A DNA stretch of 64,000 bases from NCBI GenBank assembly GCA_000092065.1, contig CP000589.1. One strand, given 5' to 3'. A program made the position numbers and the translations under genes. Below the pieces are notes generated by a model. It saw only the letters and a program-made list of their open reading frames with translations, was not told the origin of the DNA and did not search any database. Numbering within the stretch: the stretch's first letter is position 1; each line of letters begins with the position of its first letter. Positions 11,652 through 64,000 of the stretch are shown one piece after another. The DNA is from Ostreococcus lucimarinus (lineage: Eukaryota).

Positions 11652-11745
11652 TGCCGTCATGTATAAACATACCACTCTACACACGACACAGTTATTTCTA
11701 TAATCAAGATTTACCATTAGCTACAACTACACTACCTACATTTAC

Positions 11746-12474
11746 CTACGAATACGGCGTCGTGACGCCGAAGATGCTCTCGAGAGATGTCGCGGCTGTC
11801 GCGGAGCTAACCCCCGAGGTATCGACCACATCGAAACACTCCACTACCGCCTGATCGCTCGAAACCCTACAGGGTTTCGTTCCACACTTACACGAGCAGC
11901 AGCTATCGGCGCTCGCGTAAAAATGCTCCGCCGGCACCACCGCGAGCGCCGCGCTCAGCGGCGCTCGCCAATACAGCTTCGCCGAAAACGTCCCGCTCGC
12001 GCCGTTGTACGTGATCGCCTCGATCTCCACGTCTACATTCGCTTCCAAATATTTCCAACCCGTAATATTCCCCCCGCTCTCACTGCTCGCGACGACTCCA
12101 CCGTTGACGCGCAGCGCACCGCCGGCGTTCGCTTCCAGCGCGAACAGGTGCGCGCCGGTGACGTTCGCGCGCAGGCGTCCTCGAAAGCGCGCCAGCGCGT
12201 TCGCATCGACGGTTTGCCCGCTCGCCAGCGGCAGGCTCGAGACATCGATCGACGTAACGTTGGCCGTGTGCGCGGGCGCCGCGCCGCGCACGTCCGGCAC
12301 GCGCGTCGGCGCGACGGGATACGTGAAGACGTCCAGCCTCAGGCCGCGGGCATCGACCGGGACACTCGAAGAAACGGTCGACGTGTTCGCGATGTCGATC
12401 GCGGCCGCGGCGAAACGGACGCGCGCGACGACGAGGGCGATGAGGAAAAGCCGGGCCCGCGCGCGGAGGGACAT
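11746..12474 (-). CDS. Secreted (signal-peptide) protein with a PA14/GLEYA-like beta-sandwich domain.
   Basis: N-terminal hydrophobic leader MSLRARARLFLIALVVARV. RFRGRLRANVTGAHLFALEANAGGALRVNGGVVASSESGG...KLYWRAP...VVPAEHFY matches the PA14 pattern. Confidence 0.45.
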   Translation of the reverse strand: MSLRARARLFLIALVVARVRFAAAAIDIANTSTVSSSVPVDARGLRLDVFTYPVAPTRVPDVRGAAPAHTANVTSIDVSSLPLASGQTVDANALARFRGRLRANVTGAHLFALEANAGGALRVNGGVVASSESGGNITGWKYLEANVDVEIEAITYNGASGTFSAKLYWRAPLSAALAVVPAEHFYASADSCCSCKCGTKPCRVSSDQAVVECFDVVDTSGVSSATAATSLESIFGVTTPYS

Positions 12475-22168: not shown

Positions 22169-23944
22169 TTACATTTGGTCGAGATAGGCGCCGTAACCGA
22201 GCTCTTCGAGCTTGCTCGCCTTGTTCAACACGACGTTCTCCATGTCGTCTTGGTACGCTAACATTTTAGAGCACACGTCGGGCTCGAACGCGGCGACGAT
22301 GCGAGCGGCGATGAGACCGGCGTTGGCGCTGTTGCCGATGGCCACCGTCGCCACGGGAACGCCTTTGGGCATTTGAACGATGGAGAGCAAGGAATCCATG
22401 CCGTCGAGATACTTGAGCGGGACTGGGACGCCGATAACGGGAAGAGGGGTCATGGCGGCGACCATGCCGGGTAAGTGCGCGGCGCCGCCGGCGCCGGCGA
22501 TGATGGCGCGCAAGCCGCGCGTGTGCGCGCTTCTCGCGTACTCGTTCATACGCTCGGGCGTTCTGTGCGCCGAAATGACGGTGACTTCGCAACCGATGCC
22601 GAAAGATTCGAGGACCTCCGCAGCGGCGCTCATCGTGGGCAAGTCACTGTCGGAACCCATGATGATGCCGACTTGAGCCGCCTTCTTCGGCGGCGTCTTG
22701 TCCCCGCTCGCGGCGCGCAAAAGCGTGTCCAGACGCTCCGTCGCCACCGCCGCGCTCGGGCCGACGACGGTGAGGTGACCCATCTTGCGCGCGAGCTTCA
22801 TGTCAGGCTTTTCGTACCAGTGAATGCTCGCACCGGGAGTCGCTAGCGCGGCGCCCATGAGACGGTGCGCCCGGCCCATGGCCTCGTCGCCGTCGCCGTC
22901 TCCCAAAATATTCTTCATCACCGCCCCGCCAACCTTGAGCGAGGTGTCACCCAAGGGCCAACCCAAAATGGCGCGCAAGTGATTTTCGTACTGCGAGCAC
23001 GCGCAGCCTTCGATGGTGTAGTGACCGCTGTTGTGCGGTCTCGGCGCGCACTCGTTGAGCAAAATCGAGCCATCCTTGAGGAGGAAGAGCTCGACGCCAA
23101 AGATCCCCGCACCCGTGAAAGACCCGATCGCTCGCTTCGCCGCCGCTTGCACCGCTTCGGCAACTTTATTCGGAATCGGCGCCGGCGTCGTCGTCGTGTC
23201 GCAAATATTGTTTTCGTGAACGGTTTCGACGACGGGGTACGCCCGCGTCTCCCCATTCTTGGCGCGCACCACCATCACCGCCAATTCCTTCTCAAACGGC
23301 ACCCACTTCTCGCAATACAACCCTTGTTCAAACCCACCCAACTTCGCCACCGCATCGGCCAAATCCGCGGCGGTCTTCGCCACCGCGTTCCCGCGCCCGT
23401 CGTACGCCAAACGCTTGGACTTTAACATGAGCGGAAACCCAAACTCGCTCGCCGCGCTCTGCAACGCGGCTTCATTCGGGCAATCCGCGTACGGCCCGAG
23501 CGGGACCCCGGCGTTCGTGAAGTGTACCTTCTGCGCATACTTATCCTGAATCGTCGCCAACGTCTCCGGCGTCGGCTGCACGTCCACGCCCGCCGCGCTC
23601 AGCTCTCGCAGCGCCTCCACGTCGATGTGTTCAATCTCCACCGTCACCACATCGCACGTCTCCGCGAACGCCTTCACCGCCGCCTTATCCCTAAAACTCC
23701 CCACCACCTGCGTCGCCGCGATCGACGCCGGCGCGCGCTCCGTCGGATCCAGCGCTTTCAACCGCACCCCCATCGGCGCCCCCGCGATTGCGAGCATGCG
23801 TCCGAGCTGTCCGCCGCCCAATATCCCCACCCGACAGTCCCGTCCGTACCCCTCGAATCCCGGTTCATCGCTATCGCGTCCGCGCGCGTTCGCGCTTTCG
23901 TCAGTCCATCGCTCGATCGCTCGCGTCGTCCCGCGTTCGCGCAT
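22169..23944 (-). CDS. ADE2: Phosphoribosylaminoimidazole carboxylase, a fused PurK (N5-CAIR synthetase, ATP-grasp) and PurE (mutase) ADE2-type enzyme.
   Basis: PurK N-terminal half ([20 protein letters not shown]...ATP-grasp). PurE C-terminal half ([42 protein letters not shown]...[25 protein letters not shown]). Confidence 0.93.
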
Positions 23945-24181
23945 TCATTCATTCATTCATTCGCTCACTCATTCGCCCGGTTCAAACCGACGCACCTCAC
24001 TCGAAACTTGGCCTCCCCGCTCGCGCGCGCGCGCGTCCGGCGCGTTCGCCCGCGCGCGTTCGCCCGCGCGCATCGTCGCGTCGCGCGCGGCGCGCTCGCG
24101 TCGGTCGTCGCGCGCGCCGCGGCGCCCGTCATCGCCGTCGTCGTCGTCGATGTGACGACCGCGCGGCGGGCGGCGCGATCG

Positions 24182-27753: not shown

Positions 27754-27862
27754 CTGTTCGCGCGCGCGAAACGAATCCCACCCGTCGTCAGTCCCGCGTC
27801 CTCCCGGAATATTCCCGCGCGCGTCGTCGTCCGCGTCGCGTCGCGTCGCGTCGTTCACGCAC
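27754..27862 (-). other. 109-nt phase-1 intron of the NDR kinase gene (GTGCGTGA...CTGACGA...GCGAACAG).
   Basis: Splicing joins ...DFEPLKLIGRGAFG to EVRLVRQK, reconstituting an intact kinase subdomain I-II. A canonical CTGAC branch point lies about 34 nt before the AG. Confidence 0.8.
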
Positions 27863-43528: not shown

Positions 43529-44743
43529 TTAAATTTTCTCCAGGGCTTGAGCAATATCCGCTTCGATGTCGACGTAATCCTCAATCCCAGTCGAAAATCG
43601 AACGAGGTTATCCTTAATGCCAATCTCAGCGCGCTTTTCAGGACCCTGATCCCAATAAGAAACGACAGTCGGTTGTTCAATCAGCGACTCCACGCCACCG
43701 AGAGACGGCGCGATGTACGGAAGCTCGCAACTATCGATAAACTTTGCAGTCGCCCAAAGATCACCCTTGACCTCGAAAGATACCACCCCACCGAAACCTT
43801 TCATGTATTTTTTCGCAACTTCGTGGTCGCAGTGGCTCGGTAATCCCGGATAGTGCACTTTGTCAATCTTTGGATGCTTCTCGAGGTATTGAGCCAGTCT
43901 CATCGCGCTGTCGTTGTGGCGCTCGACTCGAAGCGACAAGGTCTTCAAACCTCGAAGAACCAAGTAAGCAGCGTGAGGATCGATGACACCACCCAAAATA
44001 TTATGAAATTGTCTGCACGCGGCGACTGCTTCCTTCTTACCGACGATGACACCGGCGAGAACGTCGTTGTGCCCGCCCATGAATTTCGACGCGCTGTGAA
44101 TCACCAAGTCGGCGCCAAAGTCGAGCGCGCGAGAGTTGCACGGCGTGGCAAAAGTACCATCGATGCACACGAGGCAACCCGTGGGCTTGCACAGGTTCAC
44201 GATTCGTTCGATATCGACGCAACGAAGGTACGGGTTCGTTGGTGATTCGGAAAAGTACAGCGAGCACTTGTTCTCCTTGAGCGCCTTTTCCAAGCCGTCG
44301 TAATCGGACGGATCGAGCACCGTGGACGTGATGCCCATCTTCGGCAAGAAAGTTTGAATGAATTGTCGAGTGCGTCTGTAGCAGTCCGTGGTGGTGACAA
44401 TGTGTCCACCGGCTGGGACGAGCGCGAGCAGCATAGTCGTCGCCGTGCACATGCCGGACGCGCTCAACAGAGCGTCTTCTCCGCCCTCGAGTTGGCGAAT
44501 CTTCTCTTCGCACGCCTTGGTCGTCGGATTCCCGTATCGACCGTACTCAAAGCTCCCATATCGTCCCTCTTGATACGCGATCAACTCTTCCGTGTCCTTG
44601 AAGTGGTACGTCGACGTGCACACGATCGGGGTCGTCAACGAGTCGGATACCCTCGGTCGCCCCTCCTTGCGTTCGCCTGCGTCAAAGTAACAACCGCGAT
44701 CATCACCGTCAGTCCGCGCGTCTCCCCCCTCGCGTCTCCTCAC
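43529..44743 (-). CDS. Cys/Met-metabolism PLP-dependent enzyme, most likely cystathionine gamma-synthase.
   Basis: YGRYGNPTT, SASGMCA, LVIHSASKFMGGHNDVLAGV (PLP lysine) and a C-terminal fold match. Confidence 0.8.
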   Translation of the reverse strand: MRRREGGDARTDGDDRGCYFDAGERKEGRPRVSDSLTTPIVCTSTYHFKDTEELIAYQEGRYGSFEYGRYGNPTTKACEEKIRQLEGGEDALLSASGMCTATTMLLALVPAGGHIVTTTDCYRRTRQFIQTFLPKMGITSTVLDPSDYDGLEKALKENKCSLYFSESPTNPYLRCVDIERIVNLCKPTGCLVCIDGTFATPCNSRALDFGADLVIHSASKFMGGHNDVLAGVIVGKKEAVAACRQFHNILGGVIDPHAAYLVLRGLKTLSLRVERHNDSAMRLAQYLEKHPKIDKVHYPGLPSHCDHEVAKKYMKGFGGVVSFEVKGDLWATAKFIDSCELPYIAPSLGGVESLIEQPTVVSYWDQGPEKRAEIGIKDNLVRFSTGIEDYVDIEADIAQALEKI

Positions 44744-45465
44744 TCGCGCATCACATTTTTATGCACCATCGCGCGTCCATCGCGCGTCGCTCCTCGTCGT
44801 TCGACGCACCGTTTTGCACGCACTGCGTCGAGTCGCCCCAAGGTTTCTCGCCGTTCGCCGCGCGCGTCGTCGCGCCTCGTCGTCCCGTCCCTCCTCGGCT
44901 CTTCCGCGTCGTCGCGCTCAGCTTCACCACCGTTCGCGCCTTCGCGCTCATCGCCGCGCTCATCCTACGCTCGAATCCCGTCGTCGTCGTCGTCGTCGTC
45001 AGTCCTCGCTCGGCTCGATCGCGTCGAACCTCTCGCGCCTCGGCTGGCCCTCGCGCGTCGTCGCGTCGTCGCGTCGTCTCGCGCGCCCGCGACGCGTCGG
45101 CGTCGTCCCGCGCGCGTCGCGCGTCGCGCGTCGCGTCGCGTCGCGTCGCTCGACGGACGCACCGCGCGCGTCGTCCCGGACTCGACCTCGATGTGCGGGC
45201 GCGACGCGACGCGGCGGGCGGCCGAGGATCGAGGATCGAGGATAAAAAAAAATCCGCGCGCGACGCGCATAAAGCGCGAACGATTCGCCATGAAGGCCGA
45301 AACGCGTGACGCGCGGTCGATCTCGAACGACCGATCGATCGATCGATCGATCGATCGAACGAACGAACGATCGAACGATCGATCGACGGACGAACGATTC
45401 GAGGGCGCGGCGAAGCCGAACGCGCGGCGGTGAGGGTCGAAGGAACTACGGGTCTATGAATGTGA

Positions 45466-51028: not shown

Positions 51029-51743
51029 CTATTGCGCCTCTCGGCTCTTGTCAATCCCCGTTCCCCAAGTACCTCGCGGCGCGTCGCTATATGAAGCTGG
51101 ATCCATTGGATCGAGCGGCTCAGATTCTTTCCTCGCCGGCGCGCGCGCAGCGATAGCTTTCCTTTTCGGTGCACGTTCATGATTCGAGTTGCCCTGCGCG
51201 CCCGACGGACCGATGTCTCGCCGCACGCTCGCCGGTTTGCTCACGGCGGAAGCCTTCGTCTCGACTCGCGCCGTGCCCGTCGCGGTCGATGCTTTCGCTC
51301 GCTGTTGTTTCGTCATGAATGGGTTATCGACGACGTCCAATGAACTCACGCCCGGAGGATACCGACCCAAAATTCGCGAGCAGTGTAAACAGTAACCGTG
51401 CGCCTTCACGAGTCCGCGCCCGAATCCGCCGCACCCCGAGCACCTTCGCATCCCCACCGCCGTCGCACCGTCGCGCGGTCGCTCCCAAGACGTTCTCTGC
51501 GTGTGTGGATTAAAGAAATATTCTCTTCCACTCGCCGGATCCGTCGTCGCTCGCCATCCCGGCGGCAACGGCGTCGCCGCCGGCGGCGGCGGCGGCGGCG
51601 GTCTCGTCTTCTCCGCCTCCACAGGTCGTTCCCACTGCGTCTTATTCAGCGCTTTGTTGTAGTAATACGTCTGTCCGTACGTCGGATCGACTTTCGCTCT
51701 CCACCCTCGCGGCAGCTTCGCGTCGACGTCCGTTCCCGTCCCA

Positions 51744-51774
<31 letters not shown>

Positions 51775-51792
51775 GTCGTCGCTTCGTCGTCG

Positions 51793-51832
<40 letters not shown>

Positions 51833-51892
51833 CGGCACCGCGATCCCTCGCTTCGCCAGTCGCGCCAGCAGCGCTTCCGGGAGCGCGCCCAT
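51029..51892 (-). CDS. Protein with two WW domains, an acidic N-terminus and a C-terminal Cys/His cluster.
   Basis: [31 protein letters not shown] and [52 protein letters not shown]. Confidence 0.7.
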
Positions 51893-52113
51893 CGCGTCGC
51901 GCGGTGCCGACCGGCCGGGACGCCCGACGGGGAGTCAAAACACCCGGTCGCGCGGTCGCGCCGAAACACGAACGCGAAAACGGTCGCGACGCGGCGGGAA
52001 ACGCACGCGACCGACGCGTTCGAACGAGCGAGCGAACGCGCGCACACGCGAGCGCGCGAGCGACCGCGCTCGCGAACGAAAGGCGTCGACGGCGTCGGGT
52101 CGGGTCGCGCCGA

Positions 52114-52177
52114 CGGCGAACGGCGAACGGCGAACGGCGAACGGCGAACGGCGAACGGCGAACGGCGAACGGCGAAC
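52114..52177. repeat. (CGGCGAA)9 heptanucleotide microsatellite in the 336-bp divergent WW / TPR promoter region.
   Basis: Read directly. Confidence 0.9.
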
Positions 52178-52228
52178 GACGGTTCGAGCGGGCGCGCGCG
52201 CGCGGAATCGAGTCGACCCGCGCGAGCG

Positions 52229-53518
52229 ATGGAAGAGAGCGATGGATGCGCGACGTCGCGAGACTTTGCGAGCGTGAAGATGGAATATTTTAAGACGCGC
52301 GCGCGCGAGGCGCTGGGGAACGGGAACTATAAGGAGGCGTACGCGACGTACACGAAGTGTCTGGAGGAACTCGCGCCGAGGGACGCGGGCGAACGCGCGA
52401 AACTGCTGTGTAACCGTTCGATGGCGTACGCCAAGTCTGCAAACTTTAAAGCGGCGCTGGAGGACGCGTCTGCGGCGGTGTCGTTGATGCCGACGTTCGC
52501 CAAGGGGTGGTGGCGCAAGGCGACCGCGCACGTGGGGCTGCGACAGTTCCCGGACGCGCTCGCCGCGTACAGGCAATCGTTCGAATGTCAGGACGAAGGC
52601 GACGCCGGCGTGATCGACGAGCACGTGAAAGCGATGAATAAAACGATCACTTCATTTACGCGCGAGCAACTTGCGAACTGGATTCTTGAAACTCTGCAAG
52701 ACATGGAGAATCGCGAGCTCATCGAGCACGCGCACCTCGAAAACGTCACGTCGTTGGAGATGGCAGAGGGAATGTTTTGTCAAATCAAAGGCATAAATGA
52801 AGGAAGCAAGCCGCGCGGCGACTACTATCGGTTCGTACAACATTGGAACGTACACGGTATGAGCGTGCCGATGGCTTACACCCAGCGTGCGAGCATGTAC
52901 CGCCACGCGTTGTGCTTTATGCAAGCTCGCGCCGACGCGGCGGCGGCGTTGACCTTGTTACAAGACGACGCATCGCTTTCTGACAAGGAAACGGAGATGA
53001 CCTTCACGTACAAAGTCGATGACTTCTCGCCTTTCAAGGAAGATACAGTCATCACCAAAGCTTGGGCGTGGTACGAGATGGGCAAGGCTTTTGAAGGGCG
53101 CGAAAATGGTGACACGCAAGCGGCGGCGAAGTGCTTCTCGGCGATAACGCACTTGGACACCAAGTATCCGATGTTCACGAACGCCTTCAAGAATGTGTGC
53201 AGTCGTATGACTGATGTCGAGGCTGGGAAAATATTGAGCGACATCAACGATCAGTACGGCGTGGCGGAGTATGGCGTGCGCACCGTTCCCGACGCTTTGG
53301 CAACTTACGTGGTCACCGTCAGCCTTCTCTTCAAAACTGGCAAGCTCGTCGGCTTCAACTCTAAAGTGCGAGACTCGTTTCGAGAAAACGTCGCGAAGGG
53401 TGCGAATGTCATCAAAGAAAAGGTACTCATAGAAAGCGTGCGCTCAAGGTTTCGTGGAGCGCCTGGTGTCGCGCTTTCGTATCGAATTCTCGCCGGCGAA
53501 GATAAATTAAACTCCGAG
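52229..53518 (+). CDS. TPR-repeat protein, first (GC-rich) exon starting MEESDGCATSRDF. It appears to continue through a GTACGT donor at 53519 rather than stop at the TGA at 53528.
   Basis: TPR units YKEAYATYTKCLEELAPRDAGERAKLLCNRSMAYAKSANFKAALEDASAAVSLMPTFAKGWWRKATAHVGLRQFPDALAAYRQSFE. A phase-0 GTACGT lies immediately before the stop. Confidence 0.6.
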
Positions 53519-53571
53519 GTACGTGTTTGATATCCGTCGTTCGGCGGCTGGTATTCACGATGTTAGCGCAG

Positions 53572-54828
53572 AAAATGCTCGAGAAAATTCAAGCACACGA
53601 TTTGATGTTACTGGGTGGCGCAGAAACGGAGGCTGCGATGGGTACGGCGAGCGACGTGCAAGGTGAGTTAATTAAATGGAATAAATTGATGAGGAATTAA
53701 ATAATTCATCACGTAGGCGAGCTCAAGGAACTGAAGTCGGAGGACTTGGTAGATCGCATCAACAACTTACAAGGAATTATCTTATCGACATTAAAAAGTG
53801 GCAAGGAGATCGTAGTCGCGAAGCGACCACCAACCGACATGGAGCTTCCTTACAGAACGTACAAATTAGTTTACAACGACGGCACCCCGGTCGAACGAGT
53901 GAACAAAACGGGCTATCAAATGTCACAAGTGCACTACTCGGCGCAAGGAATGCACAAACGCGAAGTATGGGCTGAGATGATGGTGCGAACGACCGCAATT
54001 AATTATTTACAATTAAATTAAATTTGACACAGGACAAGTCTTGCCGATGGCACCAGAGCTCATCTGAGATAGCCGTTCAAGCGTTACAAGTGCCGAAGGA
54101 CGCCAAGAAGCAAGATTTGGATGTCTGCATCACGCCGTCGACCGTCAGAGTGTCATGTCGAAACACTGGACGCACGTACCTAGAGGTGATTTAAATTAAT
54201 TATTTCTCGACACGCAATTATTTACAATTCATTCGCTATCAGGGAGAGTTATTTCGACAAATCATACCAGAAGAGTCTGCGTGGGTTCACCTTGGTACGT
54301 GACAAATTAAATCAATCTTCACTATCGTTTCGCGATCGAAATTAATTATTTTGCTTCAGGCGGAGAGGATGACGACGGTTTCGTGTTGTACCTGAAGAAG
54401 ATGAACCTGGAGCTTTTCAAAGATAAGAACGCCGCGCCCAGTGATAGCTGGTGGGAACGGCTGTTTAATTCTCATGGAGATATTGCATTCGATGACTACG
54501 ATAAGGATTTCACGGATCTACCCACTCCTATCGCTGAGGTGAGTGTGCTTGTTTGTTTGTATCTCCTGTTTGAGCACCGCACTGACCAACTGCATTGCGC
54601 CCGACATAGTCCATCGCAGCCGCCGAAGATGCGTCAAGTGTACTGCAGGCGAGAGAAGAGGAAGAATATAAGGAGCGCGAAGCCGCACGCGAACGTGATG
54701 ACCTCCGAAAGCGCGAGAGACAAGTGCGCCTGGCTGAACTTCGCGGGGGCAAGTATTTGTCGTGGGTTGAGCTCGACAGACGCAATCCCGCGCCGAATCC
54801 TCTGGCACAACGCAGCGAGCCTGCGTAA
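53572..54828 (+). CDS. Multi-exon region encoding a NudC-type CS domain plus a charged C-terminal tail, probably the 3' exons of the TPR gene. Proposed exons are 53572-53662, 53717-53982 (or -53964), 54033-54185, 54243-54294, 54360-54538 and 54610-54828. The introns are 50-71 nt and AT-rich.
   Basis: GT-AG sites are phase-consistent. The joined translation DKSCRWHQSSSEIAVQALQVPKDAKKQDLDVCITPSTVRVSCRNTGRTYLEGELFRQIIPEESAWVHLGGEDDDGFVLYLKKMNLELFKDKNAAPSDSWWERLF follows the NudC CS-domain pattern. The first exon could alternatively start an independent gene at ATG 53560. Confidence 0.5.
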
Positions 54829-54983
54829 TTCCAGTATGTTTTCCACGATTTTGCCTCAAAATGACCATAACCAGCGCTTGTCGTGAAAGTTACTAATTTG
54901 TGCTTGAATTCTCGCCCGGTTGAACGAGCCGTCTAGACGTCCACGCGTTTGTCCCGTCGACACACGTCGAACTGTGCGCGAAC

Positions 54984-56128
54984 TCACGCCTTTTTCACTG
55001 TCCATAGCCAACTCCAGTATGTTTTGCTCGGATTTACTCCGTATCTTGCCCGTGGATCCGCCATGATCCGGAGCAATACTTCAACGACCCCCATGTCCTG
55101 TGTCACGAACTTGGGCACCTCAGCCGTGTGCATGAATGTGTGTTCGCGGATGAACACGACGGCCGTCGCGAGCAAAGACAGTAGCATGCATACCGTAGAA
55201 ATTGAGAAAAACATCGAAAGACAAAGCAACATGCTTTTCAAGTCGAAAAGAAGCACCTCTTCACCGAATAGATGACTGCACAACATCGTGTTGAAGCCCA
55301 AAATAGTGGATTGCCAAACCATGCGGTACCCCACAGTCCAGCACCACGCCTTCATGTAGCACCCCTTACAAGACGGACTGATCGTGGCAAATAGAAAATT
55401 ACCGCGATATTTGATGAAATTGTCGAGTTGAACTCGTGCGAGCCTTGGTTTATCGTCTATTTCGCTGGCTTGCATCGCAAGTCTGTGTTCGAGAATCGAG
55501 TCGCCAACGACGGTGTGTAGTATGGGTGGATCTCCCTGCGCGATAGGTGTGAGCGAACGTGTTCAGGGTGAAAAGCGAAAAGTCTTACGTGATAATAACC
55601 ATTATGAGACACGATAGAATGACAGATCGGACACGTTCCAGAGCCCTCTTGTCCTGTGAAAGGACACATCAATTTTGACTCTGCTTTCGTCAGCTCGTCG
55701 GAGTCTTCCAGTAGTGGAGCGGCGTTTTGCCATGGCTTTGTGTCGAAAACGGCACGAATTCCCTCGTATCGACCGGTTTCTAGCAAAACGAAACACGTAA
55801 CGCTAAAAAACATCATAAACGACGACACCAAGAGCGTCCACCATTCTGCAAAGTGTCGTGAGTGTCTCGAGTTTGACTGCGACATGGTCAACTCACCACA
55901 AAAGCTGTACAAGGCCGTGCTCTTTGGAGCCGTTAGGGCCGCCGCTAGGGCTGCAGTTGCGCTGATCGGGACTGAAATCTTGCCTCTCAAGGCATTCATG
56001 ATGCCAAAAGGCTGCATCATCACTTGCATAACGGTCATGGTTGGAGGCAAACTGTGACGTTCTCCCCTCGTTTCCAAAATTGAGACTTGATTAGACTCGT
56101 CTTGAGCGCGTGCGTCATGGGGCGACAA
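54984..56128 (-). CDS. Hypothetical multi-pass membrane protein in the low-GC region: join(55589..56128, 54984..55524), with a 64-nt GTAAGA...CGCGCAG intron at 55525-55588.
   Basis: Two overlapping out-of-frame ORFs are reconciled by a phase-consistent intron (...CPICHSIVSHNGYYH | GDPPILHTVVGD...). There are several hydrophobic helices. No domain recognised. Confidence 0.45.
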
Positions 56129-56241
56129 TTTCGCGCGTGCATCGATTTATCGATTTGTGAGTGAAGTAAATTATTACGGTGTAAGGAGTTGCGATGAAAG
56201 TTCGGGATGATTCTCATCTCACATTCAAACGATCTAAAGTT

Positions 56242-59141
56242 CTACTTTTCCATTTCCTCGACCCACTCCGGGTTCTTCTTTAAGATGACAACTCCCTCTA
56301 AAACAGGAGTCAAAGGAATGTATTTCTCGCTCGCCAGCTCCGCTCGATCGCCAACTGACAGAAGTACGGGAGTGTTATGTGTTTGGAAGCCAGTGATAGT
56401 CTTTGGTCGCCCAGCCTGTCCCACGACGTCAACAGCTTGACCGACTCGAACAGACACTTGCAACGGTTCCCCTTGTTCATCCACAGTCATGAGCATGCGC
56501 GGTTGGGCAGCGACAAACAAATAGTACAGCATGTAGTGATGCTTACCCAAAATCGTATGCTTCATGTCGAGTCCCGCAAAGGCGGTGATGATCAAACCAG
56601 CAAGTGCGACGTTTGACACCAGCGCTCGGTCCGAGTGCGCCGGAGAAAGCGTGAGCAAGCCCTTACCCATATGCACAAGACCCTGTGAGACACGCACGAG
56701 GAACAAACACGACGGCTCCTTGTAGTAGTAACTACTAAGTTGTCGTAGCTGCGAGGCCAAGCGCGCGTTGTTGGTTCCCGCTCCAACAATACCGAGGGCA
56801 AGGCACGCGGACTGCGCGACCTCTTCATTGCTATCGTGACTGAGTCTACCAAGTAAATCCGTGACATCAAGCTTCGGGTTGGAGGTGTGTAACAGCGCAA
56901 ATGCGAGAGGAACGGCTTTCTTTACTGCCGCGTCACCATACTGAATAAGGTGATCGTACGCACGGACCGCCATGTCTGCTCCAAGTTCTTCGCCCATGGC
57001 AACGAGAGCGATGCCCAACACAGCGACACTCTGGGGATCTGCAATCCATTCATCGCCTTCGTCAGCCTCCGGGTGCTCGCCGCACTTCGCCAAAAGAGAC
57101 TGAATTTTCAACACATTACCACTACCGGCGTACGCGCACACGTCCAGCACAGTTTGTAAATATCCGCTGATTCGCGCCGGGAGAGTTTTCGCAACTTCCA
57201 ATGTCGCTTCCACTTCCGCTTGACGCTGTAAGAAAAGTAAACCTAAACCTAGGCACAAAAAGTGCACAAACGTATTGTCGAGTTCTTTCTCAGGCCGCAT
57301 CATCAGCGTTTGGACGATGGTCGACACAGACTCTTCGTGGCACGTGCCGCAGAAGACGAGGCCAAGCGACAGCGCTGCGAAAGCAACGACTTCCAACGGA
57401 GCACTGTCATCGTGAATCACCTCCGTGAGAAGCTCGGAAACTTCTTCTTTTTGAGTACCAGCATATGCCAAACCAAGTCCCATTATCGCACCGATTCTTA
57501 CTGCGGAGTTTTCCTTGGTCACGCTCTCGTACAACAAACCGTAAGCGGGATCGCAATCGTTCCGCACATTAGTGTTGATGAGACCAACGGCAAGCAAGCC
57601 ACCCGCAACGATGTTCGGTTCCTCGCTATAGAGATAAGCATCGACTTGCGGTAGACCGCCTTCAACGTCCCAAAGCAAGATGCTCCCAAGGCTAGCAGCT
57701 GCTGACATTTTACCGTGATCTTTGTTTTTGAAAATCCAGCTCACATTAGATGTGGAACCATCCGCGGCTTCTGAAGAAGTTAAAAGCTTATCTTGTCCGA
57801 AACCGGCGTTCACGAACGCGTTCACGAATGTCGCTGCGAGGTTAGCACGAGCACTATCCACTGCGGCGCCCGAAGGAGCGCGAACTTCCATTAAATGCGA
57901 TTTGTAAATGTCCTCGGGTAACTTCGCCTCCATGACATCCAAGTCACGCGCCAGCATCAAGTAGTTCTTTGTCAAGTCTGAGTGACTCATGATGTTCTGC
58001 AGCATATCCAGGTTATCTTCTTCAACCTCACACGGGCCTTCATCGAGCTTCAACGGATGGCCGTGACGGGCCAACATGTAGCAAAGTTGCTTCTTGATGG
58101 CCAAGTTGGTGCACGCGTTGAACGTCTCTTCGATGATGCTCTGCTCGCAGAGCTTGAGCGCAACTCGCATAGCGTCTGGCATCTTCCCAACCTTCATGAA
58201 AATCGCATGCGCCGTCTTCAACACGATTGCATCTTCTGGCTCAGGAAGATAGTTGGCACAGCTGAACAGGTACAAGCATGTCCTCGAATAGTTGGCGTCG
58301 TTCACGTTGTCGAGCAAAATGTCGAGCTTCTCAACTTCCAATAGTAAATCGACAGCCTCTGGCTCGGCGTTGTGTTGCATGTGAAAAGGAACGATTTCGT
58401 GCACCAAACCCATGAGATCTTCCATCGAAGCCTTGTCCCCATCTTGCTCTATGCGACGATGGTATTCAGTGCCGATCTCTGCGGCGAGATTACGCACATA
58501 CTCGTGTCCCCAGTTCCCGATGTCCTCCTTTGACCCTAATAATCTGTACTTCAACGACTCTGGAATTTCCCCAGCCACCGGAGCGTTGGTCATGGACAAC
58601 AAGGAAATGATATCCGCCAGCAGTAACTTGTTTTCTCCATTCTTCGTTTTGTCGTACACCTCCTTCAAGGTTTGCAAGTGCGGTCTCAAAAACTTTAAAG
58701 GCTTTGGGACCGAAGTCATCGAACTGTTCGCATCGCCGTAAAGTACCGTATCATTTCGTCAGTATCGCGCATATCACTCACTCAATCGTCGCGTGATCCA
58801 CGATCGCGTCGTAATCGTTCATGCGACCTCGTCGCTCTCGCACTCGCGCACCTCGTCGCCGTTCGGATCTCGCGTCTCATCGTTTCAAGCGCCAATTTCG
58901 CCACCCCCGCCTTCGGATCGCTCGCTCGCATCACCATCAGTTCCAAGTTCTCCTTCAGCGCCGCGTCTTCTTCGCTCAACTCCACCTCGTTCTTCTTATC
59001 CTTTCTATTCTTCGTCGTCGATGACTTTCCATCGCCAACGACCCCATCGCCGTTTTTGTCGTCTTTGTCGTCGCCCGCGGCGTTCTTTCCTTTCTTCGCG
59101 CTCGCCGCGGCGACGGCGTCGTTGGGTTTCTTCGTCACCAT
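56242..59141 (-). CDS. PSMD2: 26S proteasome regulatory subunit RPN1/PSMD2, two exons: join(58852..59141, 56242..58733).
   Basis: Exon 1 ...ELSEEDAALKENLELMVMRASD...METMRREIRTAT splices at a phase-2 GT to ...S-SMTSVPKPLKFLRPH, matching the conserved RPN1 N-terminus. The remainder contains the PC-repeat body. Confidence 0.9.
58734..58851 (-). other. 118-nt intron of PSMD2 (GTGCGCGA...CTGACGA...GCGAACAG).
   Basis: Required to join the two conserved RPN1 segments. A CTGAC branch point lies ~34 nt before the AG. Confidence 0.8.
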
Positions 59142-59395
59142 CGCGTGAGTCGGTTAAAGCGTCGCGTCGGGTGACGACGCGTCGACGAGAGCGGCGATCA
59201 TTTGCTCGCCGATCTTCATAGGCATCCTCAGCTCACCGTCTGCGCTCGTGCCCTGGGCGAGCGCTCGACGACGCGACCTCGCGAGCGCGAAGGGACGCGC
59301 GGATGGCTTTAGAAAACGAAAATCGCGAGCAATAATGTAAAAGAAAACCGACAGATGCTAAGATATCACTAAAAAATGCGTCGCGTTTCGTTCGT

Positions 59396-61444
59396 CTACT
59401 CTACGGAAGCCGCCGCTCGCGCGTCGAGCGTCTTGCGCTTGTGCGAGCTCACCGAGGTGTTCGCCTTCATCAACTCCCGAAGAACCATGGTGGCGTAAGA
59501 AGACGGGGGCAGAGTGAACTTCACCGTTACGGCACGTAAAGGGCCGTCTTCGATGGTGCGTTCGGTGATGCCATTGATGCGATCGAGATCGGTCAAAACC
59601 AAATCCGCCGCCGCGTCCGCGTACGAAATGACGGTGTGCGATACGTTTGTGGGTTTGAGAAAGCATCTACGGTAGTCACCGGTGAATGAGTTGATTGCGA
59701 ATTCACGAACCGAATGCGTCGTAGTATTCAAACTGATTCCATCCTCCGCGGCGAATCGATCGTAAACATCACCCAAATTTGTTGGGTACGTTATCGAGTT
59801 TCCAGGAAGCGGCAGCACCACGAGCGACGAGTCAATCGCACCCAAAGCGGCTTCCTCGGCTGTCACTACGCGAACCCTCGGCATACTCACCCGAGTATCG
59901 CCATTCATATCGTCTTCGCCTTCATCTCCGGCACAGTTTCCCTCTTCGAGCACTAAGTCACCTTCGACGACCGTGTTGACTCCGTACTTACGAATGCGCT
60001 CCGACACGACACGATTAAACAAGTATGCCTGGTAGGCGTGAATGTACATCAGTCTAATCTGCTTCGGCACGGCCAACAGCGATCCGACCAAGTCCGTGGA
60101 GCGAACTTTTGACATGCGCTCGAGCACACAGCGCTCTGCCGCGCACCAGCGTGGCATCAACTTCAAAGTCTCATTGGGATCCTTTGTTTCCATCCATTTC
60201 AAGCGCGCCTTCATGACATCGTCGCGCTCGCCTTCGCGCGGCAGCAGCAAAGCGTCGATCGCAGCTTGCCATTCGCCACGTAAAAGTTCAATTCCAATTT
60301 TATGCGTTGCGTGTTTGCCCCCAGCGCTACCAAATCTCTGCAAACCGTAGTAGTTGATGGTCCCTGAAGACTTGAGTGCGCGCACTGCCTCCTCCACGTT
60401 CCCGACGACGTCTGGGTCGATGCCTCGGAGCGTTATCTCAAACTCGTTCCCGCAATGGTCTCCGAAACCAAGTTGTCTGTCGACATACGTATAGTTACCA
60501 ATTTTACACCCATAAAGTACCAGCTTGGCCAACCTTTTCGCCCGAACTCTGTGCACGGTGACGTGTTGCGTTGTCACTCCGCGCTTGTCCTTCGTTCCGG
60601 CGACGCCAATAGACTTGAAGTTCACCTTCAAGGCCCGGGCTATGACGTTGAGCATCTCGTAAGACTCTTTGTTTTCTTTGCAAAACGCAAATCGCACATG
60701 TTCTGGAACGCCTTCGGGCCAAAAGTTTCCCACCGCTCGATGATCCATTGCCTCCACGCGCGTTCGCTTCTTGCCTTGCTTGACGGCGGCATGCACGCGC
60801 ACGCTCGAAGACGGCTTTTTCAAGTTCTTGAGAGCTTCCTTCTCTTCCTCGTTCGACTCCACGACGTTGTCCGTAGGTAATAAAAAGTGTTTCTTGAAAA
60901 ATTGATGAATTTGCGTCCGTTTCGCTTTATCCGTCGTCGGCTCGAGCACGAGCGGTTGGGGCGTTTCCGCCTTTCCATCGTGCGTCTTCTGACTTCGACG
61001 CGTCACCCCGGGAGTGGCTAAAAATTCTCTCAGTCGCCGCGCGTCCTCTGCACCGCACAGCGCTTCGAATTCTTTCATTGCCTCCTCAATACTCTCTTCT
61101 TTATCCCCCTCCACGTCATCCTTCGCCGCGTCCTCGTCCTCCGCTTCGTCGTCCGGCCCGCGCTCGCGTTCCATGGCTTGCACTTTCGCCTTCATCGCCT
61201 CAAACTTCTTCCGCTCTCGCGCGTCGATCTCTACATCGCACGTCGCGCTCAGTTCATTCAAAACCACCGCCTCACCGCTCTCGATGTCGATCTCCCGCAC
61301 GATGAAATCGCTGTAGCGTTCTTTCAGCACACCATCGAATCCGGCGGCGGCGTTGGCGTAGAGCTCGAGGCCGACGAGTCGCTCCTCCACGTGCTCGATC
61401 GCGTCGTTCTCGCGCCACGATGCCGACGACGGCGCGTGCGACAT
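59396..61444 (-). CDS. PUS7: tRNA pseudouridine(13) synthase of the TruD/Pus7 family.
   Basis: RYSDFIVREI, GVAGTKDKRGVTTQHVTV (catalytic Asp motif), NYYGLQRFG. Confidence 0.88.
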   Translation of the reverse strand: MSHAPSSASWRENDAIEHVEERLVGLELYANAAAGFDGVLKERYSDFIVREIDIESGEAVVLNELSATCDVEIDARERKKFEAMKAKVQAMERERGPDDEAEDEDAAKDDVEGDKEESIEEAMKEFEALCGAEDARRLREFLATPGVTRRSQKTHDGKAETPQPLVLEPTTDKAKRTQIHQFFKKHFLLPTDNVVESNEEEKEALKNLKKPSSSVRVHAAVKQGKKRTRVEAMDHRAVGNFWPEGVPEHVRFAFCKENKESYEMLNVIARALKVNFKSIGVAGTKDKRGVTTQHVTVHRVRAKRLAKLVLYGCKIGNYTYVDRQLGFGDHCGNEFEITLRGIDPDVVGNVEEAVRALKSSGTINYYGLQRFGSAGGKHATHKIGIELLRGEWQAAIDALLLPREGERDDVMKARLKWMETKDPNETLKLMPRWCAAERCVLERMSKVRSTDLVGSLLAVPKQIRLMYIHAYQAYLFNRVVSERIRKYGVNTVVEGDLVLEEGNCAGDEGEDDMNGDTRVSMPRVRVVTAEEAALGAIDSSLVVLPLPGNSITYPTNLGDVYDRFAAEDGISLNTTTHSVREFAINSFTGDYRRCFLKPTNVSHTVISYADAAADLVLTDLDRINGITERTIEDGPLRAVTVKFTLPPSSYATMVLRELMKANTSVSSHKRKTLDARAAASVE

Positions 61445-61578
61445 CGTTCACGACCGCTCGACGCGACGAAAGGTGACGCCGAACGCGCTCGCGCTCGTCG
61501 CGACGCCGCGCGCGCGAGTGTGACCGCCCAACAAACTCGTTCGAGACTGTTCGCCGCATTGTTCGCCGCGCGCGCGCG

Positions 61579-62295
61579 ATGGGCGCTTCGATCGAGGGCG
61601 AGGTCGATGAAATAATCGCTCGTCATCGCGCGTGCGTGTTACGCGGACGCGCGTTCTTCGTCGCGTGGCACGGGACGCTGACGCTCGCGTTTCAAGCTTG
61701 GAGCGAAGATTTCGCGAGACTCAAGCGCGCGCTGAACGAGATCGACGCGATGCAAGCCGAGGCGTTCGGATCGAAGTGGCCGAAAATTTCATTGGGGTGC
61801 TTGAAATCAGACGACGCGGGGGGGAGGTTGACGATGGAGGAGTACGAAGCGTTGCGCGACGTCTGCGATGGCTTTCGCGGTCGAGCGGAGCGCGACGCTC
61901 GAGTTCGAGCGAGCGAGCTGAAAGTCGTGGTTTTTGGTTCGAGATGCTGCGAGCGACGCGTGAGCGTAAAGCGCGTGAAACTGCGCCCAGAGGAATGCGG
62001 TGAGGAGGCATCGAGGGAAAGTGTAGCGCTCGTTGAGTCTGTGCTAAGTGAGGGACGGCGTGACGAAGAATACTTAAATCGCGTCAACGCGCCGGGGCAT
62101 CGAGCGTGTCATTACGAACAAGGAAGCGGTGTCACGCTCGTGGCCGACGCTCTCGAAGGAAACACCTCCGACGTTTCTGATTTGACAGCGTTGCTGCTCG
62201 AGTTTCGGAGCGCGGTTGAGAAAATATTACCGGGACGCTTCCGTTGGTTTCGAGACGATTCTCTGCACGTCACCGTGCGCGGTCTCGTAAACTAG
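61579..62295 (+). CDS. 2H phosphoesterase superfamily protein (LigT/CPDase/USB1-like).
   Basis: Two H-x-T-x motifs at the expected spacing: AWHGTLTLAF and SLHVTVRGL. Confidence 0.5.
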   Translation: MGASIEGEVDEIIARHRACVLRGRAFFVAWHGTLTLAFQAWSEDFARLKRALNEIDAMQAEAFGSKWPKISLGCLKSDDAGGRLTMEEYEALRDVCDGFRGRAERDARVRASELKVVVFGSRCCERRVSVKRVKLRPEECGEEASRESVALVESVLSEGRRDEEYLNRVNAPGHRACHYEQGSGVTLVADALEGNTSDVSDLTALLLEFRSAVEKILPGRFRWFRDDSLHVTVRGLVN

Positions 62296-62333
62296 ACAAA
62301 TAGAGTTAGAAAAAATAGGGCATTGTTTTAGAC

Positions 62334-63983
62334 TTACATTCGATCAACATAGAAATCATTTTCTTCGTCATACGCGATGACGTTATCAGCAACGCGCGCG
62401 GGATCAACAATCATGGGCCCGCGAGTCATTCCTCGCGCGGTCGCGGACGATCCGGCGTAATCGGCCACGCTGAGTGCCACGCGTTGCAAAATATCCCATT
62501 GCCACGACGACGCATTAGCGCCCGCACCACCAAATAATGTCGCCGCCGGCGACGGTTGCTTAAGCTGGACGCTAAAAATTTCGGCGCCAGCGCTGAGGAG
62601 GTCGAGAAGGACATCGTCAGACGTTTTGAGTTTGTCCACCAAATTTCTCGACAGCGCATCTTTGCCAAACCACGTCTCGCCCGTCGCGACGTTGTCAATG
62701 TCCAAAGTCGGTCTATTTTCGGCGACAAAACCCTTGAAGAGCACCAAAACGTCTTCGATGTCCTTCTTTGACTTTTCCAAGTCTTCCTCGGTGACCTTCT
62801 TCGTGGGCGTCAAGGTTCGCTTGAACTTGCCAGCGGTGACAGTTTGAAATTCGATACCTTCCCGTTGAAGCCGCTCGTAGACATTAGGTTGCTCGCTAAT
62901 GACACCGATAGAACCGAGAACCGCGAACGGAGACGCAACGATTTCGTCGGCCACGCAAGCCATCATGTACCCACCAGAGGCGGCGACTTGCTCGACACAG
63001 ATGGTCAGCTTGAGACCGGCGTCTTTGATTCGCATCAGCTGCGCAGCGGCAAGCCCGTAGCCAGTGACCGTACCGCCACCCGTATTCAACCGCAAAACAA
63101 CTTCATCACCTCGTTCCTTTTTCGCCGAACGTAACAAACCAGTGACTTCTTCACGGAGCTGTTCCGCTTGAGATGCGCGCACGTCGCCAAAAAAGTTCAA
63201 CACAAAGACATGCTTCTTCTTTATCTTCGAGTTTTGGTCCGTTTCCGGGTTCAAAGCGAGCACGTCCGCGTTCATTTGCCAACCAGCAATTTCGCGTGGG
63301 TCAGACAGCAATTTCATGAGACTCTCGCGGCGAGCTTTCGGCAACGCCGCGCCGACGGTTTGCAAGTACGCGTCTTCAGCGGCGGCGCGGTCGGCGGTCA
63401 ATTTGCTGAGCTTCTTGGTCAAACCCGCGAGCTTATCGCCACCAAACGGATTCTTGAATCCACTACTTTTCGTTTCACCGTCCGGCTCGGACTTCTCGGA
63501 ATCTTCGCTCTCGGTGTCGCTCTTTGCGCGCTTTCCGCCAGATTCCAACGACGTCGCCCGCATTTGAGCCAAAAGCTCGTTCATCTGGTCCATCAAACGC
63601 TTGTCCGTCATCGTCCACTTCTTGTTCGCTTCGAGAATGGCATTGCACTCGTCTTCGCTGAGCGATCCGAGGGCGGCGCCGAACTTTTTGCTGAATTCCA
63701 TATTCTTGCGGCGTCGTTCGGCTTGCATTTCGCTCACCGTCGCCGCTTCAAACGACAGCGAATATCCGTCGAGTTTATCATTCATGCGCTTGATCTCCAA
63801 GTAAGGCTCCGTGCGCGGTTTCGCACCCGCGCCCCCTTTGATGAAACCGAAAGGTCCGCTACCCTTCTCGCGGTCCCGTCTCCCTCCGCGTCTCGAAGAA
63901 GCAATCAGAAAAAACGCGCCCGCCGCGACCGTCGCGCTCGGCACCCCCCACGAGATGAGCGTCTTCAGCGTGTACAATCCCAA
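62334..63983 (-). CDS. S49-family serine peptidase (SppA/SohB-like, ClpP/crotonase fold) with an N-terminal membrane anchor.
   Basis: LNTGGGTVTGYGLAAAQLMRIKDAGLKLTICVEQVAASGGYMMACVADEIVASPFAVLGSIGV matches the S49 active-site region. N-terminal hydrophobic segment SATVAAGAFFLIASS. Confidence 0.8.
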   Translation of the reverse strand: MGLYTLKTLISWGVPSATVAAGAFFLIASSRRGGRRDREKGSGPFGFIKGGAGAKPRTEPYLEIKRMNDKLDGYSLSFEAATVSEMQAERRRKNMEFSKKFGAALGSLSEDECNAILEANKKWTMTDKRLMDQMNELLAQMRATSLESGGKRAKSDTESEDSEKSEPDGETKSSGFKNPFGGDKLAGLTKKLSKLTADRAAAEDAYLQTVGAALPKARRESLMKLLSDPREIAGWQMNADVLALNPETDQNSKIKKKHVFVLNFFGDVRASQAEQLREEVTGLLRSAKKERGDEVVLRLNTGGGTVTGYGLAAAQLMRIKDAGLKLTICVEQVAASGGYMMACVADEIVASPFAVLGSIGVISEQPNVYERLQREGIEFQTVTAGKFKRTLTPTKKVTEEDLEKSKKDIEDVLVLFKGFVAENRPTLDIDNVATGETWFGKDALSRNLVDKLKTSDDVLLDLLSAGAEIFSVQLKQPSPAATLFGGAGANASSWQWDILQRVALSVADYAGSSATARGMTRGPMIVDPARVADNVIAYDEENDFYVDRM

Positions 63984-64000
63984 CTCCTTCGCCTCGGGCG

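Follow-up and report, generated by a model that had tools for sequence, protein, structure and literature searches.

In the window analysed here (the whole stretch of 64,000 nt from Ostreococcus lucimarinus, contig CP000589.1), the forward-strand segment 52229–54828 raised the question of whether a reading frame that ends in a stop codon belongs to the same gene as the coding sequence beyond it. The initial frame opens with the ATG at 52229 and is closed by the TGA at 53528–53530, as a preliminary description had it. A GTACGT donor in phase 0 begins at 53519, which places it 9 nt ahead of the TGA instead of the 10 nt first given, and removal of the proposed 53-nt intron ending in GCGCAG (53519–53571) does keep the frame open. 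All six of the proposed introns were recovered within the expected range of 50–71 nt, with lengths of 53, 54, 50, 57, 65 and 71 nt, and the seven exons joined in frame to give 2250 nt, encoding a 749-aa product with zero internal stops. The segment was interpreted, with a probability of roughly 0.93, as one nuclear gene of the minute marine green alga Ostreococcus (Mamiellales) that encodes a co-chaperone-like protein with TPR and NudC-type CS domains; the exon-intron structure and the identity of both domains are firm. A single pre-mRNA would be transcribed across 52229–54828, the ordinary spliceosome would take out the six short GT-AG introns, and the TGA at 53528 would never be read by a ribosome because it lies inside intron 1. 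To speak of a bypassed stop codon, as was done initially, is misleading: the TGA is simply intronic and the position of the stop differs among lineages. Programmed readthrough or ribosomal bypass was rejected on the same grounds, the TGA falling within a conserved GT-AG intron and being variable in position between lineages.

Exon 1 (52229–53518, 1290 nt, aa 1–430), delimited by its reading frame, encodes the TPR module, a series of helical repeats and three strands with which an alpha/beta domain begins; it was colinear with, and 72% identical to, exon 1 (1293 nt) of the O. tauri orthologue. Intron 1 (phase 0, GC 0.53) contains the in-frame TGA and leads to exon 2 (53572–53662, 91 nt), intron 2 (53663–53716, 54 nt, phase 1, GC 0.26), exon 3 (53717–53982, 266 nt) and intron 3 (53983–54032, 50 nt, phase 0, GC 0.30). 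The CS beta-sandwich begins in exon 4 (54033–54185, 153 nt), continues across intron 4 (54186–54242, 57 nt, phase 0, GC 0.28), exon 5 (54243–54294, 52 nt) and intron 5 (54295–54359, 65 nt, phase 1, GC 0.32), and ends in exon 6 (54360–54538, 179 nt), which also carries the WW motif SDSWWERLF. Intron 6 (54539–54609, 71 nt, phase 0, GC 0.51) is canonical in type, a CTGAC lying 24 nt from the 3' splice site, and exon 7 (54610–54828, 219 nt including the TAA stop) encodes a charged helical tail.

The gene model stands well above chance, and eight diverged lineages have the very same exon structure. The O. tauri orthologue (CEF98972.1, referred to below as P0001, 750 aa) was 72% identical to the window protein over 99% coverage; its exons measure 1293, 91, 266, 153, 52, 179 and 219 nt and its introns 55, 55, 60, 58, 66 and 74 nt. 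RNA-seq validated 89% of introns in the O. tauri annotation release (PMC4378021). Six intron positions were common to all eight Ostreococcus-like lineages, among which protein identity ranged from 61 to 92%, and the internal exons of 91, 266, 153 and 52 nt were identical in length in every one, while intron lengths varied. Seven lineages had a fifth internal exon of 179 nt; in the model of the eighth (L008), whose boundary between exons 6 and 7 is provisional, it measured 176 nt. Intron 2 was of the GC-AG type in one lineage. Intron 1 occupies the same position in all eight lineages, at 50–57 nt, and its lengths include all three classes modulo 3; ORF-style calls of the TPR half all stop right past the same point (an E or K followed by GT). 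Evidence of splicing came from a transcript contig (L005) of a sister lineage (L002), from which introns 2–6 were exactly absent; this contig begins 29 nt inside exon 2, and no transcript was found for junction 1. A scan of JGI metagenome contigs for the spliced form of junction 1 of the window species (TTAAACTCCGAG joined to AAAATGCTCGAG) returned 0 matches and was uninformative, because junction 2 was equally absent (0 matches) from a collection that contains no cDNA of this gene.

The genomic neighbourhood was likewise constant. In every Ostreococcus-like locus the gene order was RFC, JmjC, WW, the present gene, a small gene and RPN1. The O. tauri locus (CAID01000009.2:149,754-152,374, chromosome 9), annotated as 'Tetratricopeptide repeat' (CEF98972.1 / XP_022839573.1) and also as 'Hsc70/Hsp90-organizing protein HOP' (OUS49016.1), resembles the window in having RFC, JmjC and WW upstream and a small membrane-like gene and RPN1 downstream, as well as in its seven exons, the internal ones matching those of the window in length, and in a drop in GC at the start of the gene. 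It differs in the lengths and sequences of its introns, apart from the splice sites and the AATTAATT blocks considered below. When introns were solved by brute force for the neighbouring 310-aa gene of O. tauri, several equally valid answers were obtained.

Beyond Ostreococcus, the window protein could be aligned from end to end with Bathycoccus-like, Picochlorum and Apatococcus proteins. Two homologues, the Bathycoccus-like P0099 (825 aa) and P0098 (796 aa), each have one uninterrupted ORF across the position of junction 1, and those of Picochlorum (694 aa) and Apatococcus (722 aa) were colinear over their full length. Judged by alignment, exon-intron structure and gene neighbourhood, the window gene is a member of the O. 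tauri CEF98972.1 orthologue group, which forms part of a family of TPR-CS proteins colinear throughout the chlorophyte green algae. Colinearity of these homologues indicates that the TPR-CS architecture is old; it is not new, being annotated in O. tauri and present in other green algae.

An alternative arrangement would place two adjacent genes here: a 433-aa TPR protein that ends at TGA 53528, and a CS gene that starts either at ATG 53575 or at a semi-conserved ATG at 53638. Prokaryote-style gene callers do report the 433-aa ORF as complete, in more than 160 metagenome assembly blocks, the window has an ATG 3 nt past the proposed acceptor, and a methionine in exon 2 (within AAMG) is found in seven of the eight lineages. 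Nevertheless, this arrangement was considered highly improbable. The TGA is followed by the first ATG after only 44 nt; ATG 53575 is missing in six of eight lineages, and exon 2 of lineage L009 contains no Met at all. The 22 codons that precede the semi-conserved Met showed pairwise differences of 323, 198 and 408 at codon positions 1, 2 and 3 respectively, as for coding sequence in the spliced frame, which is the only frame in which exon 2 is open. From its pattern of substitution, exon 2 is taken to be coding, including the stretch upstream of any Met. The donor and the acceptor have stayed in place although the intron between them has changed in length; the Bathycoccus-like and other homologues run through the junction without interruption, both halves are fused in the O. 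tauri annotation, and a folded alpha/beta domain in an AlphaFold model spans junction 1.

That domain was predicted at about aa 360–467 (53306–53736), straddling introns 1 and 2. The model was of O. tauri P0001, aligned with database homologues; it had a pLDDT of 82.5 overall and of 85–90 for residues 361–460. Its strands at 361–371, 402–410 and 414–424 derive from exon 1, whereas the helices spanning 427–454 and the strand at 457–468 derive from exons 2–3. According to this model, intron 1 falls inside one confidently folded alpha/beta domain.

A single spliced gene might still yield a second product, if intron 1 or other short introns were often retained and the TPR-only form ending in NSEVRV were substantial and possibly used. 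Retention of short AT-rich introns of the mating-type or BOC1 region of Mamiellales averages 0.33 in M. pusilla (PMC13298755), and translation of a window transcript that kept intron 1 would stop after three extra codons. Such a product was thought quite unlikely to be of consequence. The place of the first in-frame stop past the donor varies by lineage: L007 has none inside intron 1, and in L008 the read-through runs on out of frame beyond the intron. Since neither the read-through peptide nor its stop is conserved, no conserved truncated isoform is evident. Stopping at aa 430 would also cut the alpha/beta domain, and with a GC of 0.53 the window's intron 1 lies outside the AT-rich class. In this Ostreococcus, which is abundant in the environment, ORF-style annotation breaks up a conserved gene for a 749-aa co-chaperone-like protein into a 433-aa 'TPR protein' and unannotated fragments; for the window species itself, the protein collection contained only incomplete ORF calls, none longer than 433 aa, and a full-length model was not found there. 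The right model is a seven-exon orthologue of the annotated O. tauri gene, which requires neither recoding nor a new domain fusion.

The order of domains first described, in which a single spliced product carries a TPR module, a CS domain of NudC type and then a charged tail, was confirmed; in a Pfam search the joined exon translation matched both CS and TPR repeats. In full, the product would run from the TPR module through helical repeats, the small alpha/beta domain and the NudC-type CS domain to a long charged C-terminal helix. The TPR domain (about aa 17–122, 52277–52594) comprises three repeats of the Hop/SGT/PP5 type (Pfam TPR_2/TPR_1/TPR_8). Sequence matches in PDB were to Hop, SPAG1, RPAP3, SGTA and PP5, and fold matches to SGT, Sti1 TPR2B and Hop TPR1 had TM-scores of about 0.8 (target-normalised). 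The module as a whole, three motifs plus a capping helix, had TM-scores of 0.74–0.85, likewise target-normalised, against the EEVD-binding modules of Hop TPR1/TPR2B, SGT, RPAP3, SPAG1 and PP5. The five residues of the carboxylate clamp of Hop TPR1 are reportedly K8, N12, N43, K73 and R77 (Scheufler et al. 2000). In alignment, four of these positions correspond to K22, N62, K92 and R96 of the window protein, which do not vary within the family, while the fifth, that of Hop N12, is occupied by R, K, S or D among TPR-CS members. The module would be of the type found in Hsp70/Hsp90 (EEVD-peptide) co-chaperones.

The CS domain, a p23/HSP20-like beta-sandwich (about aa 544–631, 53965–54400), is split by introns 3, 4 and 5. 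Its Pfam match (PF04969, aa 553–615) had an E-value of 5e-9 and a score of 37.4 bits against a curated cut-off of 21.3, and each of the 10 family members tested gave a match to the profile. When a profile built from the C-terminal half was compared with PDB, it returned only 3qor, 1wfi and 2cr0 (NudC), 1wgv (NUDCD3) and 2rh0 (NUDCD2). A Foldseek search of a PDB library aligned the domain with human NudC (3qor) at an rmsd of 3.0 Å and a TM-score of 0.68–0.73 (target-normalised). The C-terminal tail is charged and was predicted as one long helix in the model of P0001; its pattern, RDDxRKRxRQxRLAELRGG..SWV.L.R.NP, is kept in the family. The protein may work as an Hsp90/Hsp70 co-chaperone or adaptor, because two modules of co-chaperone type are present.

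Comparison with known CS proteins showed that the CS profile and fold are nearest to the NudC family (NudC, NUDCD2 and NUDCD3), with which the window protein also shares a WW motif after the sandwich. Unlike NudC, however, it has a TPR module, helical repeats and an alpha/beta domain before the CS domain and a different charged helix behind it; NudC proper was rejected, as Nudc_N was unmatched and the N-terminus consists of TPR and helical repeats. SGT1 and DYX1C1 are Hsp90-linked proteins that combine TPR and CS domains. The initial comparison with them took the order of domains to be different. SGT1 (TPR-CS-SGS) has its TPR before its CS domain, so that the order is the same as here, yet the window protein has about 400 extra residues between the two and a CS domain of the NudC type rather than the SGT1 type. 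It was rejected as an identity because the SGS profile was unmatched in 10 of 10 members and the tail is a single charged helix. The order does differ from that of DYX1C1/DNAAF4 (CS-TPR), which likewise joins the two domains; it was rejected in turn, TPR coming first and CS last in the window protein, which is therefore neither of the two.

Having established the gene, its introns were compared with others by length and base composition. The preliminary description of all six as AT-rich held for introns 2–5 (GC 0.26–0.32) and failed for introns 1 (0.53) and 6 (0.51). CTRAC was absent from introns 2–5 of the window and occurred in only 2 of the 32 corresponding introns across eight lineages, whereas intron 6 had CTGAC or CTAAC 21–27 nt from the 3' splice site in six lineages. 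The canonical type is represented by intron 6, and intron 1 is nearer to it than to the AT-rich class. A pattern scan of the rest of the window found candidate introns of about 100–200 nt (two of them 109 nt) with GC of 0.6–0.7 and GACTGACGA branch sites, which upheld the contrast drawn previously between the short introns and GC-rich introns elsewhere. The claim that the 3' half of the gene lies in a different compositional compartment did not survive. The drop in GC comes about 400 nt into exon 1, before the splice; the remainder of exon 1 and exons 2–7 both have a GC of 0.52, and low GC persists downstream. A compositional boundary at the splice was therefore rejected.

Short, AT-rich introns are known from the low-GC part of the big outlier or mating-type chromosome of Mamiellales (PMC3491373, PMC3879977, PMC13298755), and such BOC1-type introns are defined as being under 75 nt and under 43% GC, without a discernible CTGAC-type branch site (PMC3879977). 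By their properties introns 2–5 belong to this class: they are GT-AG introns of 50–65 nt with the low GC given above and no CTGAC branch site, and several occur per gene within a locally low-GC stretch. Introns 1 and 6 exceed the GC limit. Two features set introns 2–5 apart. The BOC1 region of O. tauri is chromosome 2:1-575,000 (Table S2, PMC3491373), while the O. tauri orthologue is on chromosome 9, outside it; and BOC1 introns are described as lacking a conserved motif, while introns 2–5 carry a conserved AATTAATT block. Judging by the O. tauri orthologue, short AT-rich introns of a kind described as restricted to the big outlier chromosome would here lie on a standard one, within low-GC sequence that the genus has conserved.

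The palindrome AATTAATT, the sole unusual feature of an otherwise ordinary gene, was present in 25 of the 32 short AT-rich introns (introns 2–5 of eight lineages), against about 0.5 expected. Its three copies in the 64-kb window lie in introns 3 (at 53997), 4 (54194) and 5 (54340), while intron 2 has TTAATTAA at 53668–53675. Reiteration of AATTAA in these introns, remarked upon at the outset, was also borne out, since 9 of the 13 copies in the window fall within the gene and 8 of these within introns 2–5. No other copies were encountered across about 150 kb examined, and a search of the literature for the motif in Ostreococcus produced a sole match, to an irrelevant Hi-C ligation-site string. 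Across six metagenome contigs, polymorphism within the window species was limited to three synonymous SNPs in the gene; the introns had none, which is too little to test constraint on the motif.

Introns 2–5 might instead be copies of an introner-like mobile element, or have arisen together in a single burst along the Ostreococcus stem lineage, in which case AATTAATT would be a remnant and not a splicing signal. Introner elements are known from Micromonas (PMC3879977), the homologous region of the Bathycoccus-like orthologue, in the same neighbourhood, is intronless, and the 796-aa homologue P0098 is likewise a single ORF. Moreover, four introns inside 700 nt have the motif in common, and one 12-mer and one 13-mer occur in both intron 3 and intron 4 of the window. 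Even so, such an origin is rather unlikely. Outside the AT-rich motif introns 2–5 are mutually unalignable, and the motif is donor-proximal in introns 2 and 4 but acceptor-proximal in introns 3 and 5; further copies were absent from the region examined, and loss of the introns in Bathycoccus would account for their distribution just as simply. The motif was kept throughout the Ostreococcus radiation while the remaining intron sequence diverged, which favours selection over a decaying remnant.

A tentative possibility is that introns 2–5 form a distinct subclass of Mamiellales micro-introns on an ordinary chromosome, recognised via the conserved palindromic AAUUAAUU. Were the element general, the view that BOC1-type introns contain no sequence signal would need revision, and the short AT-rich form could not be explained by residence in the non-recombining mating-type region alone; as a splicing signal, AATTAATT would offer a testable route to the recognition of short AT-rich introns. 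AAUUAAUU could be an AT-shifted branch site, or a binding site for an intronic splicing factor. UUAAU is CUGAC after three GC-to-AT transitions, and still satisfies YURAY.

The TPR-CS locus at 52229–54828 (+) is one spliced gene, as the preliminary description had read it. An ORF opened by the ATG at 52229 met its first in-frame stop at a TGA (53528–53530), and 9 nt upstream of this TGA, not 10 nt as first described, a GTACGT donor was present at 53519 on a codon boundary, that is, in phase 0. Intron 1 (53519–53571) was followed on the same strand by five further GT..AG segments at 53663–53716, 53983–54032, 54186–54242, 54295–54359 and 54539–54609 (introns 2–6), the six measuring 53, 54, 50, 57, 65 and 71 nt. 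Their removal produced seven exons of 1290, 91, 266, 153, 52, 179 and 219 nt, or 2250 nt in all, which encoded 749 aa without an internal stop and terminated at TAA 54826–54828. When this translation was compared with Pfam, both expected domains were found: TPR repeats close to the N-terminus and a CS domain at aa 553–615 (37.4 bits; cut-off 21.3). Since the spliced frame was open and both domains were matched, the proposed coordinates and frames were correct. The TGA is indeed removed by splicing, but the 'bypass' of a stop codon is ordinary, since the TGA is simply intronic.

A search of protein collections identified an O. tauri ortholog (P0001; CEF98972.1/XP_022839573.1, 750 aa) with 72% identity over 99% of the model, from a release in which 89% of introns are reported as validated by RNA-seq (PMC4378021). 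Threaded exactly on its own locus, P0001 had exons of 1293, 91, 266, 153, 52, 179 and 219 nt and introns of 55, 55, 60, 58, 66 and 74 nt. Spliced alignments were made for six further Ostreococcus-like loci, metagenomic or genomic, with two boundaries corrected by hand. All six intron positions were common to the eight lineages (the window, L001, L002 and L007–L011; between-lineage protein identity 61–92%); exons 2–5 were exactly 91, 266, 153 and 52 nt throughout, while exon 6 was 179 nt in seven and 176 nt in the L008 lineage model, where the boundary was not hand-checked. The lengths of all six introns differed among lineages, those of intron 1 (50–57 nt) covering all three classes modulo 3. 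In L008 the orthologous intron 2 (5444–5496) was of GC-AG type (GCAAGT...GATGCAG), and exon 2 was still 91 nt. Where the TPR half had been called as a plain ORF, conservation ended exactly after ...(S/A)(E/K/Q), the V that follows being the GT of the donor. Two older public ortholog models, the 763-aa P0084 of O. tauri and the 749-aa P0028 of the L002 lineage, already fuse the TPR and CS halves; both leave out exon 2 and translate introns 5 and 6 as if coding, which means that wrongly spliced versions persist in sequence databases. The window species is plentiful in marine metagenomes, with the gene on >160 assembly blocks (e.g., L012–L017), where 52229–53530 is called as a stand-alone 433-aa TPR protein. 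Six of its metagenome contigs showed three SNPs in the gene, all synonymous, and none in introns 1–5.

A separate CS gene could begin at the ATG lying 3 bases past the intron 1 acceptor in the window; this ATG was missing from six of the eight lineages, and exon 2 of L009 lacked any Met. Over the 22 exon 2 codons before a semi-conserved Met, pairwise differences numbered 323, 198 and 408 at codon positions 1, 2 and 3, and these codons were open in the spliced frame only. In a Bathycoccus-like contig (L006), one uninterrupted, intronless ORF comprised the CS half together with the C-terminal region of the TPR side, the gene continuing past the contig's 5' edge; the complete form, a single ORF of 825 aa (P0099), was present on many contigs. 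An exhaustive HMMER search with P0001 recovered full-length colinear homologues of 694–796 aa, including those of Picochlorum and Apatococcus. In the AlphaFold model of P0001 (mean pLDDT 82.5), the intron 1 position fell within a confidently predicted alpha/beta domain, to which exon 1 contributes three strands and a helix, and exons 2–3 the other helices and the last strand. The five downstream junctions were borne out by a transcript-derived contig of the L002 lineage (L005; Logan SRR28369142), which aligned to the genome of that lineage in six blocks with gaps corresponding to introns 2–6. L005 starts 29 nt inside exon 2, and therefore direct cDNA support covers junctions 2–6 and not junction 1. 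When JGI metagenome contigs were scanned for the spliced forms of junctions 1 and 2, neither was matched, an uninformative outcome.

G-C content was 0.62 over 1–52228 against 0.53 over 52229–64000. The 3' half of the gene had been assigned to a separate compositional compartment; this did not hold, because G-C falls about 400 nt inside exon 1 and not at the splice. The first 400 nt of exon 1 had a G-C content of 0.63, the rest of exon 1 0.52, exons 2–7 0.52, the introns 0.37 and the next 4 kb downstream 0.50, and the same step was seen in all eight lineages. The conserved low-GC stretch (52600–64000 in the window, 6400–12000 in the L001 lineage; about 0.48–0.53 against 0.54–0.62 upstream) holds nearly the whole TPR-CS gene, a small downstream neighbour and RPN1. 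RPN1 (56242–58719) was intronless, and its G-C3 of 0.59 was the window minimum.

The introns had been described as AT-rich, which was true of introns 2–5 (G-C 0.26–0.32) but not of introns 1 (0.53) and 6 (0.51); in intron 6, CTGAC lies 24 nt before the 3' end. Elsewhere in the window, candidate canonical introns of about 100–200 nt and G-C about 0.55–0.70 were found by pattern only (a GTGCG(T/C) donor with GACTGACGA) at 1358–1466 (+), 9826–10021 (+), 23871–23995 (-), 27754–27862 (-), 44677–44809 (-) and 58724–58851 (-). GACTGACGA is the extended branch site reported for Ostreococcus (PMC3879977). BOC1-type introns, defined as under 75 nt, under 43% G-C and with no discernible branch site (PMC3879977), have been reported in all Mamiellales, where they occupy the low-GC portion of the big outlier chromosome (PMC3491373, PMC3879977). 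That portion is now interpreted as a mating-type region that does not recombine, in which branch sites are depleted and intron retention is high (PMC13298755). Introns 2–5 share all three properties; in O. tauri, however, the ortholog maps to chromosome 9 (CAID01000009.2, near 150 kb), outside the BOC1 of that species (chromosome 2:1–575,000; PMC3491373). Introns 2–5 thus resemble BOC1 introns but reside on a standard chromosome, and in O. tauri the low-GC stretch, too, belongs to chromosome 9 and not to the outlier chromosome. With its stop intronic, its architecture ancient in green algae, its ortholog annotated and its intron class known, the gene is ordinary.

A palindromic octamer, AATTAATT, occurred three times in the 64-kb window, exclusively in introns 3 (53997–54004), 4 (54194–54201) and 5 (54340–54347); intron 2 carried TTAATTAA at 53668–53675. 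Of the 32 copies of introns 2–5 in the eight lineages, 25 contained AATTAATT, against a mean of 0.46 and a maximum of 4 over 300 composition-preserving shuffles, although these counts are not independent events because the lineages are kin. Within about 150 kb examined, 34 of 35 copies lay in introns of this gene, with almost none elsewhere. Each intron kept its own site for the octamer: introns 2 and 4 had it beside the donor, introns 3 and 5 at a distance of 9–22 nt from the acceptor. In alignments it was the best conserved block outside the splice sites, the remaining intron sequence having diverged. TTAAT differs from CTGAC by three GC-to-AT transitions and still satisfies YTRAY, so one reading is that AATTAATT may be an AT-shifted branch site; however, given the donor-proximal copies, no single branch-to-acceptor distance fits. 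No mention of the motif was found in the literature collection searched, and specialist follow-up could pay off for this conserved block in BOC1-like introns outside BOC1.

By sequence, the N-terminal 120 residues resembled the three-repeat TPR modules of Hop/STIP1, SPAG1, RPAP3, SGTA and PP5, with fold matches at TM-scores of 0.74–0.85 (normalised to target). Of the five carboxylate-clamp positions of Hop TPR1 (Scheufler et al. 2000), four were aligned with K22, N62, K92 and R96, all invariant in the family; the fifth position was not Asn in the family. Among all PDB sequences, a profile of the C-terminal half matched NudC, NUDCD3 and NUDCD2 only, and the modelled CS sandwich superposed on human NudC at 3.0 A; the label 'NudC-type' was therefore right. 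Profile searches detected no SGS domain in 10 family members, unlike SGT1, and no NudC N-terminal domain. Identity with SGT1, DYX1C1 or NudC itself was rejected, and the protein belongs to a chlorophyte TPR-CS family. Judging by its two modules, it probably acts as an Hsp70/Hsp90 co-chaperone or adaptor.

Upstream, a perfect 7-nt microsatellite (ACGGCGA) x 9.4 occupied 52113–52178, within the 336-nt divergent intergenic region between a WW-domain gene (51029–51892, -) and the TPR-CS gene. L006, which has a GT29 sialyltransferase neighbour, carried the same gene set as the window (TPR-CS, WW, JmjC, RFC and RPN1), but with the WW-JmjC-RFC block in inverted orientation, flanked by the TPR-CS gene on one side and RPN1 on the other. 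The small downstream gene (54984–56128, -; L001 8781–9807) appeared as two overlapping ORFs. In O. tauri the annotated ortholog has 310 aa and a total of about 94 nt of intron sequence, most simply explained by a pair of short introns, about 41 and 53 nt long (G-C 0.40–0.49), which lack AATTAATT. In the window copy, a GT directly after ...NGYYH agreed with one of these proposed donors.
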